Source of the DNA: a virus
Strand: one strand, 5' to 3'
Virus record (IMG/VR): IMGVR_UViG_3300043420_000984
Location: 27,487-91,486 of that record
Length of the DNA: 64,000 bases
The translations under genes and the position numbers were made by a program. The notes beneath the pieces are model-generated. The model did not search any database, had not been told where the DNA came from, and worked only from the letters and a program-made list of their open reading frames with translations. Shown here one piece after another: positions 6,772-47,186 of the stretch. Each line of letters starts with the position of its first letter. The first letter of the stretch is position 1.

Positions 6772-8487
6772 ATGCCAGTAACTACTAATATTTCTACCAC
6801 TCAAAACTATACAATTCCATCGGACGTTTTTAGTTTAACTATTCGTCTCTGGGGAGCTGGTGGCGGAGGTGAGTTTGTTAACACAAATGCCACTTTAACT
6901 GCTACTGCTGGTAGCAGTGGATCTGCTACTTCATTTATTGGACTTGTTGCTGGTGGTGGACAAGGTGGTGGTGTTGGTGGAAAAAATCAAGGTGGATCTG
7001 GTGGATCTGCCTCTACAACTTATAATTGGGCAACTGAGCATTCGGCAACGGTAAGTTCTAATGATGGTAATTCTGGTTCTATTAGTAGTGGTGGTGCTGG
7101 AAGAACATTAAATTCACTAACAAAAGGCGATGGTGGTAGTGGAACAACTGGTGCTGCAGAATACACCTCTAGCATATATCATGTATTTAATAATGATGCT
7201 AATGTTCATATCGTCACTAATAGTAGTTCAGATATTATAGTTGGATATGAATCTCCAGAGGCTCCAAATAGTCAACCATGTAGTACAAATTATAGCTATA
7301 AACACTATAGAATTACATTTGTATCTCCATTTGTAGATAGTAGTTACAGTATTAGTGTTTATGATATATGTCAGCAAGCTGCGGCTGGTGGAACTGGCGT
7401 ACCAATTACTGTTGCTGGATTTCGAGATAAAACATCTAGCGGATTTCGTATATGGTTTTGTAGAAATGCTAATAGTTATGTCAGATGCTTTTCTTTTACT
7501 GCGTCTGGAATTAAGTCTGGTGCTGCTGGTATGGGTGGTGGTAGTGGAGCTACTATACAAACTACACTAACACGTCAAATGTTTATTAATTCTACTACTT
7601 ATGCTCCTGGTACTGCACATTCTGTTACTATTGGATCTGGGGGTGCTCGCGGAGGAACCACTTCTGTAGCTGGATCTGATGGATATGCCCAAATTTATGC
7701 AATTATTATTCCTAAGGTAACTTTAACTGCTAGTTCATATGCAATAATTGTTGGTCAATCCACAACTCTTAGTTGGAGTACCAGTGGTGATGGTGACACC
7801 ATTACATGGACATCTGAAAATATTAATAATACTAATTTGACAAGTAGTGTTAGCGTTTCCCCACAAGAAACCACAACATATACTGCCGTTGCCTCTGGAT
7901 TGGGTGGATCATCTGCTCCAGCTAGTGTTACTATTGTTGTATATCAAGTTCCTACCGCTTCCATTACCGTTCCAGAAACTTTGAATTACGGTGAAGATGC
8001 TATAATATCATATACTACGAAATATGCAGATAGTAGTATTTTACTAAGACCATATTACACATATTTAAATGAAGATACTGAGGTTGCTGGAGACCCAATT
8101 TCTTTACCCAAAGCTACAAGTGCAGAAAATGGAAAACTAGATTCTGAAATTGTCAGGGAGAATAATTCTCTTACTGTCAGTATTCCATATAATGATTATG
8201 GACCTACTAGTGTAACATATGTTCTAGAAGCAAGCGGGTCTGGAGGATTTGTGAGTGTAGAACAATCGATTGATATTGTAATAGATCAATATCCTGAAAA
8301 TATTATTATTCCAGAAAAGGAAGATGCTTTTAAAAATCAAGATCCAGTATTTACTCCCGAAACCGAAGTTTTATCAGAATTGTTATTAATAAATGACATA
8401 GATATTCCAGTTGAAATTAAATCAAATTATCCAATTCAAGTTGATATCAATGGGCAAAGTGACTGGCAAAATTTGCGAGAAATCTGA
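6772..8487 (+). CDS. Gly-rich virion/fibre protein with Ig-like domain (paralogue 1)
   Basis: WGAGGGG Gly-rich N-terminus, Ig-like 'TTLSWS...TTYT' domain, C-terminal 'IDQYPENIIIPE...W..LR.I' domain shared with the next two ORFs. Confidence 0.7.
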   Translation: MPVTTNISTTQNYTIPSDVFSLTIRLWGAGGGGEFVNTNATLTATAGSSGSATSFIGLVAGGGQGGGVGGKNQGGSGGSASTTYNWATEHSATVSSNDGNSGSISSGGAGRTLNSLTKGDGGSGTTGAAEYTSSIYHVFNNDANVHIVTNSSSDIIVGYESPEAPNSQPCSTNYSYKHYRITFVSPFVDSSYSISVYDICQQAAAGGTGVPITVAGFRDKTSSGFRIWFCRNANSYVRCFSFTASGIKSGAAGMGGGSGATIQTTLTRQMFINSTTYAPGTAHSVTIGSGGARGGTTSVAGSDGYAQIYAIIIPKVTLTASSYAIIVGQSTTLSWSTSGDGDTITWTSENINNTNLTSSVSVSPQETTTYTAVASGLGGSSAPASVTIVVYQVPTASITVPETLNYGEDAIISYTTKYADSSILLRPYYTYLNEDTEVAGDPISLPKATSAENGKLDSEIVRENNSLTVSIPYNDYGPTSVTYVLEASGSGGFVSVEQSIDIVIDQYPENIIIPEKEDAFKNQDPVFTPETEVLSELLLINDIDIPVEIKSNYPIQVDINGQSDWQNLREI

Positions 8488-27399: not shown

Positions 27400-27547
27400 T
27401 CTGAACTTGTTTCCCTATGTCGATACATTCCCGTATCGCCTAGAGGACAAGACCGAAAAGAAAACCTGTTACTTCCAAACTGAAAGCCATGCTCGAAAGT
27501 ACATTGACCGATACAAACCTGAATACCAACTATACTGTTTTGCTTGA
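27107..27547 (+). CDS. Hypothetical protein, start uncertain (only the last ~50 aa look globular)
   Basis: LFPY..FPYRLE...CYF...H.RKY..RY; 5' part overlaps the upstream gene in the +1 frame. Confidence 0.45.
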   Translation: MMSNKKTTAPSPSAGTKTTLKKASSTPGPKKTSSTQSKTNASLSKNLEKLTTQPKRSTKSQTTSSTKPQRKSSKTSATPKSSSKRKNTSPQELVYSSDLNLFPYVDTFPYRLEDKTEKKTCYFQTESHARKYIDRYKPEYQLYCFA

Positions 27548-42783: not shown

Positions 42784-42860
42784 CAGTCTGACAAGTGGCA
42801 CACAGGGGGTTGCAATTGCCCCCGATATCCATCATACTACCCAAGTAAACACAAATTCAA

Positions 42861-43217: not shown

Positions 43218-43547
43218 ATGCGTAAGATCGAACGCCAAATGAACGCTGCCATTCGTGACAGCAAGGATTGGAAGTCTGCCAACACCATGGTTACCACTGT
43301 TAATGGTGTTTCCCATGTGTTTCTTCATGGTAACAAGATTGCTGAGGTTGGTGACAACTTCATCGTGCTGATGGATGGTGGTTGGCAATCTAACACCACT
43401 AAATCTCGCCTGAATGCTATCCTGTGTGAGCATGGTTGCCCTGGTGAGTGTGTGTTTCAAGAGAAGTTTCAGTGGTTCGTTAACATGAAGAACGCCAAAG
43501 GTGAGAATATGAAGGTTCCTTTCTTTTCTGGGATGCGTCTAAACTAG
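43218..43547 (+). CDS. Conserved-type phage early protein
   Basis: MRKIE...VFLHGNKIA...DGGWQSNTTKSRLNA. Confidence 0.8.
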   Translation: MRKIERQMNAAIRDSKDWKSANTMVTTVNGVSHVFLHGNKIAEVGDNFIVLMDGGWQSNTTKSRLNAILCEHGCPGECVFQEKFQWFVNMKNAKGENMKVPFFSGMRLN

Positions 43548-43562
43548 GAAATTCCTAAAATT

Positions 43563-43821
43563 TAGAATTCTCAATAAAATGAAATTATTGAGAATTCTAT
43601 TTTTTTATAAAATAAGAAAGTTATAACTTATAATATCTTTATTATAATAACTAACAAACAATTGAGGTTTATTCTAATGACCATTCAAGAAATGTATCAA
43701 GAGTTAAAAGAACAAACCGAAGAAGATAATATAGATCTATACGATGATTGTTATATCTTCGATATAGAATATACTACTCTGGAGTAGTATATTATACTAT
43801 ACTAGTACTAGTATAGTATAA
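43563..43821. repeat. AT-rich island with stacked palindromes
   Basis: 15-bp inverted repeat 43563-77/43585-99; 12-bp inverted repeat 43768-79/43782-93; perfect 30-bp palindrome 43792-43821. Confidence 0.92.
43677..43787 (+). CDS. Tiny acidic ORF (36 aa)
   Basis: GAGG upstream; MTIQEMYQEL... Confidence 0.4.
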   Translation: MTIQEMYQELKEQTEEDNIDLYDDCYIFDIEYTTLE

Positions 43822-44017
43822 GTCAAGTATAACTGTGCCAGTTTGAGAGCTGGCACAGTAGGCCAGAAGCGCCCTGGATCCCTCCCTCGCCTCCCTCTAG
43901 TCTAGAGGTCGCCGCGGCCAATTCAAGGGGGTTGCAGACGGTTTGAGAGGTGGCACAGAGATGGTCGCAAAGGTGCTGACCCGTGCTTATAATGATCAAG
44001 ACAACCACATTCACCTG

Positions 44018-44251
44018 ATGACTGACACTTTCTTCAAGACCTTCGCTAACACTTTGGTCTACAACATCGCCACGATTGTTGCTATCATCGTGGCAGTAGT
44101 TAGCTATACTTACCGTGCTGCCCGAGTTTGGTATAATGAAGGCGGTCGTGAGTTTCTGATCACTAACGCCTGTAAGTGCATGGCATTTGTTAACAAAATG
44201 GCAGAACAGGCATACTACCGTCTGGAGGATGCTGAGACCGCCGCGGCCTAG
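44018..44251 (+). CDS. Small membrane protein
   Basis: Cassette with one TM helix. Confidence 0.65.
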   Translation: MTDTFFKTFANTLVYNIATIVAIIVAVVSYTYRAARVWYNEGGREFLITNACKCMAFVNKMAEQAYYRLEDAETAAA

Positions 44252-44331
44252 TACAGTCTGACAAGTGGCACAGGGTCAGTCGCAACCTGCCTCACCCTGT
44301 GCCTATAATGACCTCAGTTCAATTCACTTCA

Positions 44332-45144
44332 ATGGACCGCCTCGAAATGCTCATGTCGCGAGAACAGTTAATGGAGGATATTGATTGTATCATCAGCGGT
44401 TATTTTCAGGGCATCGATGAAGATGAACTGAATGAAGTTACCCGCATCCTGTGTGATGCTGTCTGTGCCAACTTCCCCGCTAACTGATCATGTACCGCAC
44501 ACTTTCTGAACTTCGTGATAGTGTCAATCAGATGATTGATGCTCAAGGTGAGAACGCTCCCTGTGCTGCGTTTGTATTCACTCAGCACGATGTATTTGAG
44601 TTCAATGAGGAAACCAATCAGGATGATTATTTCTCCTCTCTTTTCACTCAAGATGTGCTCGCTGATGTAGGTGGTTCTTCCTACATCTACGAACAGGTAG
44701 GTGAGATGATTGATGATACAATCCGTCTCCGTAAGAATCTGACTGTCTATTCTGGAAAGATGTGGCAGCATAATGATGAGGATGACAACTGATGAACCGC
44801 ACTGAACTCCAGGATCAACTCATTCAGACAATTCTGGATGGTATGGACATGAAAACCCTCGAACAGTATGCTTACGACATGCTGGTGAATTGCTTTGAGG
44901 GTTATACTGATGAAGAACTGATCACAGAGGTTAGTGATCATTACCCTGAACTTCTGGAGGACTGATGTTAGCTCTACTTAGCATGGGCGTTGATAGTTTC
45001 AAAGACGCACTTTACTGGTGGCGTGAGAATGAAATGCCTGCGTTCTGGATTGAACTGAACAGCGGCTATTATCAGCTCAATCCTAAACTCTACGCTGCAG
45101 CGATGCTAGGCAACAACTATGCAGACGTAGTTTATACAAACTAG
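44332..45144 (+). other. Four coupled small, mostly acidic ORFs (44332-44487, 44490-44792, 44792-44965, 44965-45144)
   Basis: Close spacing and TGATG couplings after promoter module 44250. Confidence 0.65.
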
Positions 45145-45330
45145 GCGGCCGCGGCCAGTACGTTCATACTACTGGCCCTAGAGGGGGATCCCGCCCTCTT
45201 GCCTCCCTCCAGCATAGAGGCGGCCGCGGCCGATTGCAAGGGGGTTGTGGGCAGTTCGACTGGTGGCACACTGGTGGTTGTGGTGGGGTCGCTCCACCCT
45301 ATACTAAGGGAGTCAAACGCACCGAGACCC

Positions 45331-45516
45331 ATGTGGGATGAGATCCAAGACATGCCTGGTGAGATCTTCGACATCTCAGACGAGACCCGCGACGAGATGG
45401 CCGCGGCCTGGGCAGACGATGCCGAGGAGGAGCCAGGGTGGGATCTGATGGGATGGGACGATGATCAGGCCCTGGAGGAGTTCTCCCTGGAGTGCGCCTT
45501 CGGCCCTGAGGAGTGA
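45331..45516 (+). CDS. Extremely acidic 61-aa protein
   Basis: MWDEIQDMPGEIFD...; about one third D/E with a single Arg. Confidence 0.7.
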   Translation: MWDEIQDMPGEIFDISDETRDEMAAAWADDAEEEPGWDLMGWDDDQALEEFSLECAFGPEE

Positions 45517-46655: not shown

Positions 46656-46722
46656 AGTGGCACAAGAGGGGGCAGAGATGCCCCCATCCTGGCTCTAGAC
46701 TTCTCTCAACAGCAAACGACCC

Positions 46723-47107: not shown

Positions 47108-47186
47108 CGATCAGCAGGGTGGCCGCGGCCGCCCTGATCTGCCCTCACCCGTGCCTATAATGACCTCAGTTCAAACGAAACGAACC

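Follow-up and report, generated by a model that had tools for sequence, protein, structure and literature searches.

In the early region of an uncultured cyanophage we found two leftward units, W1 and W2, each resembling a promoter cassette without a gene. They lie in a stretch of 64,000 nucleotides (nt), called the window below (positions 27,487 to 91,486 of the IMG/VR virus record IMGVR_UViG_3300043420_000984, a record of 91.5 kb). We hold, with moderate confidence, that each unit is a backward-firing early cassette lacking an open reading frame (ORF) and making a predicted G-rich RNA of ∼45–75 nt. As the same unit was present in ∼27 uncultured relatives, it is probably a small non-coding RNA gene not described before. 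All the evidence is computational, with family copies coming from contigs of uncultured phages; transcription of the unit, the RNA end and the role are what we infer from it.

Leftward units in the early region

The initial annotation of this DNA had described the dyads at 43935 and 45248 as bidirectional, with homologous left flanks driving related leftward RNAs. The promoter motifs that it quoted, the rightward −10 boxes and the hairpins at 43832–43859 and 45153–45177 all lie where it had placed them; a third leftward promoter, at the perfect dyad 43832–43859, was absent from it. The features of these loci are as follows (the 5′ and 3′ ends of the predicted RNAs are inferred positions).

43799–43826, minus strand: third leftward promoter, TTGACT-N16-TAGTAT, six bases past dyad D1 (promoter scan and dyad scan)
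43824–43892, minus strand: predicted RNA 1, type A1, ∼69 nt; AGGCGAGGGAGGGAUCC.., 9–10 bp hairpin from dyad D1, tail UUAUACUU
43832–43859, no strand: perfect dyad D1, CTGTGCCAG-N8-CTGGCACAG; predicted end hairpin of RNA 1 and dyad of another leftward promoter
43899–43926, minus strand: W1 leftward promoter; TTGAAT (43926–43921), N16 spacer containing GCCGCGGC, TAGACT (43904–43899)
43935–43958, no strand: dyad D2, common to a rightward promoter (TATAAT at 43989–43994) and leftward unit W1; left arm imperfect
43959–43994, plus strand: rightward early promoter of gene 44018–44251; stem-loop, TCGCAA, TATAAT (43989–43994)
45132–45204, minus strand: predicted RNA 2, type A2, ∼73 nt; G-rich 5′ end, hairpins 45180–45199 and 45153–45177, 3′ module
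45211–45239, minus strand: W2 leftward promoter; TTGCAA (45239–45234), N17 spacer containing GGCCGCGGCC, TATGCT (45216–45211)
45248–45270, no strand: W2 dyad, common to the rightward promoter of gene 45331–45516 and leftward unit W2; imperfect left arm, then TGGCACA
45271–45305, plus strand: rightward early promoter of gene 45331–45516; TTGTGG-N16-TATACT, with TATACT at 45300–45305

Read on the minus strand, the order at the units is dyad arm, ACCCCC, TTGnnn, 16–17 nt and TAnnnT; the −35 hexamer of W2 directly follows ACCCCC, six bases past the dyad arm. The leftward −10 box lies 28–29 nt past the arm, as in the rightward cassettes, and TAGACT of W1 is also the −10 box of the rightward cassettes at 46658 and 48422. 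The 3′ module of RNA 2, GCGGCCGCC-N-AGUUUGU, overlaps the stop codon TAG (45142–45144) of the convergent gene.

We sought TTGnnn-N16-18-TAnnnT on the minus strand at all 23 dyads of the window. A mirror-image promoter was present at three of them (43935–43958, 45248–45270 and 43832–43859), always at an offset of exactly 24, and at none of the other 20; these three are the sole dyads with a non-coding left flank. The background rate of the minus-strand pattern was 2% for the whole span of 14 positions. The bidirectional architecture proposed for the dyads at 43935 and 45248 is supported by the mirror-image promoters, with the qualification that the left arm at 43935 is imperfect.

Local alignment of the W1 and W2 flanks produced a score of 40 versus 8.4 ± 1.6 in 2000 base-order shuffles; on sequence grounds the two left flanks are true paralogues, and the homology noticed earlier holds. 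The 91-kb contig contains exactly two copies of the unit. Taken together, the geometry, the homology of the flanks and the hexamers kept in relatives (see below) indicate that the leftward hexamer pairs are more than chance. Furthermore, the plan arm-ACCCCC-TTGnnn-N17-TAnnnT precedes real genes in the cyanophage contigs L005/L007, L012/L014 and L003; we therefore read the block CAAGGGGGTTG as the reverse complement of the C-run and the TTG of the −35 hexamer. The idea that CAAGGGGGTTG is a separate upstream element (L003, L005, L010 and L012) was rejected, these sites being ordinary cassettes on the other strand. Comparison of all six frames in five copies revealed a conserved ORF on neither strand, in agreement with the earlier view that no credible minus-strand ORF is present.

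The window comes from a cyanomyovirus of the Kyanoviridae (S-PM2-like), of which it represents the early, hyperplastic region; the nearest relative in a blastn search was Synechococcus phage S-PM2. The plus strand between ∼41.6 and 49.4 kb is filled with many small ORFs, with one type of cassette ahead of each, and altogether ∼22 rightward promoter cassettes built on a single plan are located between 18.5 and 49.4 kb. The order of elements is dyad, stem-loop, −10 box, leader. The dyad is imperfect (TGTGaCAg-N8-cTGGCACA), often with the stop codon of the preceding gene inside; it is followed by a G-run/C-run stem-loop with a variable −35-like hexamer (examples at 42796, 42283, 46658 and 23959), a −10 box of the form TAnnnT (TATAAT, TATACT, TAGACT or TAGAAT) situated 29–31 nt past TGGCACA, and a leader CTCAGTTCAAACGA.. 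in which a Shine-Dalgarno sequence is missing. The motif GTGGCACA occurs 12 times in the 91-kb contig, always on the plus strand.

We also observed that GCCGCGGCC is present at seven sites within 4.8 kb (43911, 44240, 45148, 45223, 45400, 47122 and 48702), with 0.03 occurrences expected. It occupies the leftward-promoter spacer of both W1 and W2; at 47122 and 48702 it replaces TGGCACA or caps a cassette stem-loop, and at 44240 and 45400 it encodes Ala-Ala-Ala following Glu and one more residue.

Relatives of the units in other contigs

Relatives were collected by pattern scans and a synteny search, and then by leader searches of IMG/VR. The pattern used to scan IMG/VR for type A leaders fitted A2 only; type B members were gathered by an exact 19-mer. 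Close copies were found in contigs L004 and L045 for W1 and in L002 (identical with L019 and L022) and L034 for W2, and more distant copies of the unit in L058, L069 and L113. The leader searches yielded four further A2 copies and 25 IMG/VR stretches with the type B 19-mer; among the latter, L133 was a chance match and several were contigs already found.

The leaders, in RNA sense, fall into three types: (i) A1, TAGACT or TACAGT followed by AGAGGGAGGCGAGGGAGGGATCC (W1, L004 and L045); (ii) A2, TATGCT followed by GGAGGGAGGCAAGAGGGCGGGATCCCCCTC (W2, L002, L034, L125, L127 and L128); (iii) B, TAACCT followed by AGAGGGCGGGAGGGGAGGGAAG (∼18 contigs). The promoter hexamers of W2 recur in L002, L034, L125, L127 and L128; the W1-type promoters are TTGACT-N17-TAGACT in L004 and TTGATT-N17-TACAGT, before an identical leader, in L045. 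The hairpin GCGAGTAGT..ACTACTCGC is present in L034 (type A2) as well as in L130 and L153 (type B), and the tail GCGGCCGCC-N-AGTTTGT is common to A2 and B. As 3′ modules are common to different leader types, we consider all these copies as one mosaic family of ∼27 distinct units. The claim of paralogous, ORF-less leftward units thus extends to a conserved family in ∼27 contigs of uncultured cyanomyoviruses, and the same contigs provide comparative evidence for predicted RNAs that start G-rich and run into a hairpin.

The number of copies per genome is 0–2; of four near-complete related genomes searched, three (S-PM2 included) have no copy and the fourth has one. In S-PM2, at the junction after p070, the unit is absent and only its outer ends CAAACT..GCCGCGAGT remain. 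In L125, a 186-kb contig (99% complete) of a more distant phage, the A2 unit (8170–8400) is situated between two copies of TTACAGATTGTTTCAATGT and not between TGGCACA dyads, which indicates that the unit moves between different cassette systems; here, the unit seems to be co-oriented with the next promoter.

Searches outside this set gave negative results. The exact type B 25-mer had no match in representative prokaryote genomes, and the degenerate type A pattern had only chance matches there, in high-GC bacteria, with none in cyanobacteria. No Rfam family reached its gathering score in the window or in four loci of the family, where all matches were at chance level (E up to 10). When CCTCCCTC was considered as a phage target of the G-rich block, it was found in the 91-kb contig only inside the two units.

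Conservation begins at the leftward −10 box

In the set of 18 type B units the information content, ∼0.5 bit ahead of the −10 box, reaches 2 bits precisely with the first T of that box and drops ∼28 nt later; the six positions of the −10 box and three bases after the 19-mer were outside the search pattern. Conservation thus begins at the −10 box, and upstream of this point the −35 hexamer and the spacer turn over. Still, the best match to TTGACA at spacers of 16–18 averaged 3.85 of 6 positions in the 26 units with distinct upstream sequences (17 units had at least 4), as compared with 1.4–2.4 at control offsets and 3.15 over the dyad arm. In L125, L127 and L137 there is no dyad, but TTGCAT or TTGACT is present 17–18 nt upstream of the −10 box.

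The core of orthologous copies is 92–97% identical, with 55–65% identity in the adjacent rightward stem-loop and 50–70% in the flanking genes. W1 and W2 are 78% identical to each other; set against the 92–97% seen across phages, this value means that each paralogue is separately kept. The 23-nt A1 leader of L045 is identical to that of W1, with both flanks being unrelated, and the genes on either side of the conserved unit differ among L002, L004, L034, L045 and the type B contigs. The placement is regular as well: the convergent ORF ends 54–140 nt past the −10 box in 23 of 28 copies (54–117 nt for ORFs of at least 45 aa), and a divergent ORF begins 89–132 nt away on the opposite side in 21 copies.

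In every unit a hairpin starts between +28 and +82. U residues average 3.8 in the 10-nt tail of the hairpin when it is read in the RNA sense, against 1.6 in the reverse reading; type B units commonly have the tail AGUUUGUUAU. The hairpin 45153–45177 of W2 is replaced in L034 by a different, equally paired stem, i.e. by a compensatory change. Another candidate, a conserved RNA hairpin CCTCTAG.CTAGAGG, was rejected since the changes in L004, L002 and L034 break the pairing rather than compensate for it.

We propose that each left flank would be a complete early-type promoter cassette without an ORF, which adjoins the next gene's promoter back to back and has a dyad in common with it. Host RNA polymerase of the sigma-70 type would start on the minus strand near 43892 and 45204 and would produce a short RNA (∼45–75 nt) with a strongly conserved G-rich 5′ end followed by a hairpin and a rather U-rich tail; this RNA would end just where the preceding, convergent gene has its stop codon. 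The role that we prefer is that of a small RNA whose working part would be the G-rich 5′ block. It would most likely act locally at the gene junction, by pairing with or blocking read-through transcripts of the upstream gene; action in trans is nearly as likely. The leader was also considered as a Shine-Dalgarno decoy pairing with the 3′ end of 16S rRNA, and this candidate was rejected (A1 would fit, A2 and B do not).

A number of observations weigh against such a small RNA gene. The leftward hexamer pairs of W1 and W2 match the consensus at 8 of 12 positions each, below the threshold of 9 of 12 used in the promoter scan. The type B −10 box, TAACCT, is weak when compared with the consensus, and a −35-like hexamer is missing from six type B units, in which a dyad arm lies ∼30 nt before the −10 box; identity inside the type B 19-mer is not evidence, because the members were gathered by it. 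The hairpin tails are only moderately U-rich and do not look like classical terminators, and the hairpin of L137/L144 and L143 clearly serves the convergent gene as terminator. The strands are not told apart by folding z-scores, with values of −3.0 and −1.4 on the minus strand as compared with −2.4 and −2.6 on the plus strand. Blastn searches of 50,697 records of isolated phages with W1, W2 and type B detected no homologue, the last of these searches being perhaps blinded by the low-complexity filter. Finally, pieces of the units resemble rightward-cassette parts: in both S-PM2 and L004 the anti-restriction (ArdA-like) gene has a rightward promoter that GGATCC..CCCTCTTGxCTCCCTCC matches, and GGCCGCGGCC is a variant dyad arm, which replaces TGGCACA or caps the stem-loop at 47122 and 48701.

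From this resemblance it follows that the units certainly evolved by cassette recombination. The motif GGCCGCGGCC forms the dyad arm in L129, L130 and L153, and W1 looks like an L129-type promoter rebuilt via a 20-nt insertion and a deletion. As to the ArdA-like promoter of S-PM2, we observed that it has a perfect 20-bp palindrome around GGATCC followed by TTGACT-N17-TAATCT, and that it matches positions 45180–45210 of W2 at ∼28 of 31 bases. The junction after p070 and this promoter were read in S-PM2 at L041:1500–1560 and L041:2300–2390 (21.45 and 22.3 kb in S-PM2).

Comparison with known systems

Repeated promoter-early stem-loop (PeSL) cassettes were described in the T4-type phages RB49/phi1, PST/T4 and nt-1/KVP40 (Arbiol et al. 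2010, PMC2839356; Comeau et al. 2014, PMC4122927), and both promoter and terminator activity were shown for them in reporters. Judging by organization, the rightward cassettes of the window are the cyanophage counterpart of PeSL cassettes of T4-type coliphages. Both are repeated intergenic cassettes of ∼100 bp in a hyperplastic early region, each spanning the interval from one small gene's stop codon to the following gene's start; both have a host-type promoter with a G-run/C-run stem-loop lying between its −35 box and its −10 box; both are more conserved than the flanking genes, are located at synteny breaks and mark points of modular exchange between related phages. The differences are that a spaced TGTGxCA..TGGCACA dyad is present here instead of an AT-rich upstream region and that the leader is devoid of a Shine-Dalgarno sequence. 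Moreover, PeSLs were described as one-way, the words ‘bidirectional’ and ‘antisense’ being absent from the paper, whereas some junctions here add a backward promoter that has a conserved, G-rich leader of its own, devoid of an ORF. The 2014 survey of PeSLs (PMC4122927) makes no mention of cyanophages.

One-way PeSL cassettes being already known, what would be new here is a PeSL-like cassette with an attached, conserved, ORF-less counter-unit. At some junctions of a hypervariable early region, one that also holds anti-restriction genes, the unit would fire against the gene flow. If transcribed, it would make a new family of phage small RNAs and a second, backward-facing half for the PeSL concept; the sharply conserved G-rich start of the RNA is a concrete object for testing. 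As conserved units stand between genes that vary among phages, they would also be points of modular recombination, like PeSL cassettes, and their location at synteny breaks may help to explain swaps of early genes between phages. T4-like cyanophages are among the most abundant marine viruses; to our knowledge, little of their early regulation and few of their replication starts have been mapped.

The lambda OOP RNA is a 77-nt antisense RNA, convergent on cII, that overlaps ∼55 nt of the cII coding sequence. The predicted RNAs are similar to OOP in being short phage RNAs with their own promoter and terminator, directed against the flow of neighbouring genes toward the 3′ end of the upstream gene. 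The similarity does not extend to sequence or structure, and the predicted RNA covers the region of the stop codon only (0–10 nt of overlap unless read-through takes place; e.g. ACAAACTAG at 45136–45144). Antisense RNAs are known in cyanophages, such as CfrI of S-PM2 and those of P-SSP7, which protect mRNA from RNase E. Here, as there, the predicted transcripts are non-coding counter-transcripts in cyanophage genomes; however, the known ones overlap coding regions extensively, are not tied to promoter cassettes and have no sequence relation to the unit, which S-PM2, the phage of CfrI, does not carry.

Transcripts with G-rich segments that form primers are made at mitochondrial CSB II and as ColE1 RNA II. 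In common with them, the units would have a G-run-rich nascent RNA near the promoter followed by a U-rich stretch, and type B has a canonical quadruplex motif; the resemblance is one of composition and motif only, with A1 and A2 being weak or non-canonical quadruplex formers. The T4 origins oriF and oriG consist of a promoter with an A+T-rich unwinding element right downstream and a persistent R-loop (Kreuzer and Brister 2010, PMC3016281); T4 origins have no common sequence motif, and oriE depends on an early promoter (PMC3016281). As in these origins, the units would have a promoter whose transcript could stay hybridized to the template; the promoter-like architecture seen here is of early type. 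In contrast to oriF and oriG, most units would be transcribed into DNA whose GC content is ordinary, with apparent termination after 45–75 nt; the GC content at +60 to +160 is 0.51 in W2, 0.39 on average in the family and 0.27–0.28 in W1-type copies, so that the downstream A+T-richness of oriF and oriG is not a feature of the family.

Alternative explanations

Each unit could be a recombination scar, that is, a stack of dead fragments of rightward PeSL-like cassettes in which leftward hexamers are by-products and high identity reflects recent exchange or gene conversion rather than function. The origin of the pieces is in line with this: GGATCC..CCCTCTTGCCTCCCTCC is similar to the promoter that reads rightward into the ArdA-like gene in S-PM2 and L004; GGCCGCGGCC and CAAGGGGGTTG(CAA) are found in intact rightward cassettes at 47122, 48701, 42289 and 42805; direct repeats flank the units (18 nt at W1, 14 nt at W2); L034 is a hybrid, W2-type in its left part and W1-type in its right part; and S-PM2 has no unit at the orthologous junction. 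Dead fragments, however, should decay, whereas at each locus the core is conserved better than any other segment and adjoins a stem-loop of 55–65% identity. Homogenization within one genome is excluded, as W1 and W2 are old paralogues (78%), each 92–97% identical to its copies in other phages; also, the −35 hexamer was regained at the correct spacing in unrelated upstream sequences and most of the 28 copies are placed in the same way. A pure scar does not, in our analysis, explain the pattern of conservation, and we regard this explanation as rather unlikely. For an element acting on the plus strand or as DNA, the C-rich block with palindromes GGATCC and GGCCGCGGCC would hold protein-binding sites upstream of the rightward promoter, or belong to the 3′-UTR (untranslated region) of the upstream gene, and leftward transcription would be irrelevant. 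One would then understand why invariant blocks (GGATCC, GCCTCCCT, GCCGCGGCC and CAAGGGGGTTG), with two palindromes among them, are split by variable linkers, and why the two strands give RNAs that fold about equally well. Yet the rightward cassettes of ∼20 other junctions function without the block, and type B and L045 lack the palindromes and keep the −10 box and the G-rich block; with conservation beginning exactly at the leftward −10 box and hairpin tails more U-rich in the leftward sense, we judge such an element improbable. Far less probable still is a small protein encoded across the element on either strand. Open minus-strand frames do exist (45374–45141, 77 aa; 44014–43823, 63 aa), and a plus-strand frame of W2 and L002 continues in phase into gene 45331; but the minus frames are broken by a frameshift in L034 and a stop in L004, the plus frame is closed in W1, L004 and L034, most of the differences that separate the copies are non-synonymous, and the frame is shifted by the indels that distinguish W1 from W2.

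One could also speculate that the unit is an R-loop or G-quadruplex device: the G-rich nascent RNA would stay on the C-rich template, the displaced G-rich strand would fold, and the hybrid would prime DNA synthesis as an accessory origin or start the recombination that shuffles cassettes. The start of the predicted RNA, its best conserved part, has on average 54% G and 17% C over 25 nt, a G-richness by which R-loop formation is only suggested. With regard to the quadruplex motif (four tracts of at least three G, loops of 1–7 nt), type B and W1 fit (GGG-N6-GGG-N1-GGG-N5-GGG in the W1 leader), two loops in W2 measure 8 and 11 nt and a fourth tract is missing from L045. The four-tract motif of the type B leader is canonical, with folding energies of −27 to −30 kcal/mol when quadruplexes are allowed and −12 to −14 without them; no quadruplex was predicted for W1 or W2, and the G runs of A2 pair with the C run in the 5′ hairpin. 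The location of units at synteny breaks and at a step of GC content would suit such a device, and oriF and oriG of T4 do act via promoter-made R-loops, with oriE needing an early promoter (PMC3016281). On the other hand, an A+T-rich element directly downstream is present only in W1-type copies, where it is a conserved small gene; the unit seems to end at a terminator-like hairpin; and a device present in 0–2 copies per genome is missing from three of four near-complete related genomes searched, S-PM2 included. The suggestion that these units work like T4 origins was not supported, on the same grounds, as W2 and most members of the family would fire into ordinary GC and three of the four near-complete genomes searched have no copy. 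RNA 1 had been said to point straight into an AT-rich island; the sequence downstream of W1-type copies is indeed AT-rich, but the island proved to be a conserved small gene with its own terminator and not an empty tract. The idea of a replication origin is weakly supported, and an R-loop device as a whole appears unlikely to us. We have similar doubts about the broader proposal that R-loops of G-rich early counter-transcripts, stabilized by quadruplexes at cassette junctions of cyanomyoviruses, serve as accessory starts of replication or recombination and physically drive the shuffling of early (anti-defence) genes; if true, it would give a mechanistic basis to exchange of the PeSL type.

Neighbouring genes and other observations

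The third leftward promoter (43799–43826) has counterparts in L045 (TTGACT-N17-TATAGT) and L004 (TTGACA-N18-TATTGT), with unrelated spacers; the arms of D1 are identical in L004. The RNA predicted from this promoter would be fully antisense to a conserved, very acidic ORF of 36–43 aa (43677–43787) in the AT-rich island; no minus-strand ORF of at least 20 aa was found opposite this small ORF.

Upstream of the units lies a gene of the Kyanoviridae Gp96 family (43218–43547), and downstream an anti-restriction (ArdA-like) gene. Positions 43557–43612 make a strong intrinsic terminator of the Gp96-family gene (a 15-bp AT-rich stem, then TTTTTTT), the equivalent of which in L004 differs in sequence. 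A dedicated scan detected no tRNA or transfer-messenger RNA (tmRNA) in the window.

Across the loci of the family, the units are located at a step of base composition, GC averaging 0.39 toward the convergent gene and 0.53 toward the divergent one; between 43.5 and 46 kb of the window a GC-rich array (∼0.6) starts just right of W2. The first 44 nt of gene 45331–45516 (MWDEIQDMPGEIFD) are 95–100% identical in L002 and L034, and the remainder is ∼50–57% identical. Such a sharp drop suggests either a recombination boundary or a functional 5′ segment. A gene with the N-terminus of 45331–45516 follows at least nine units (L002, L034, L113, L129, L130, L134, L150 and L152 among them).

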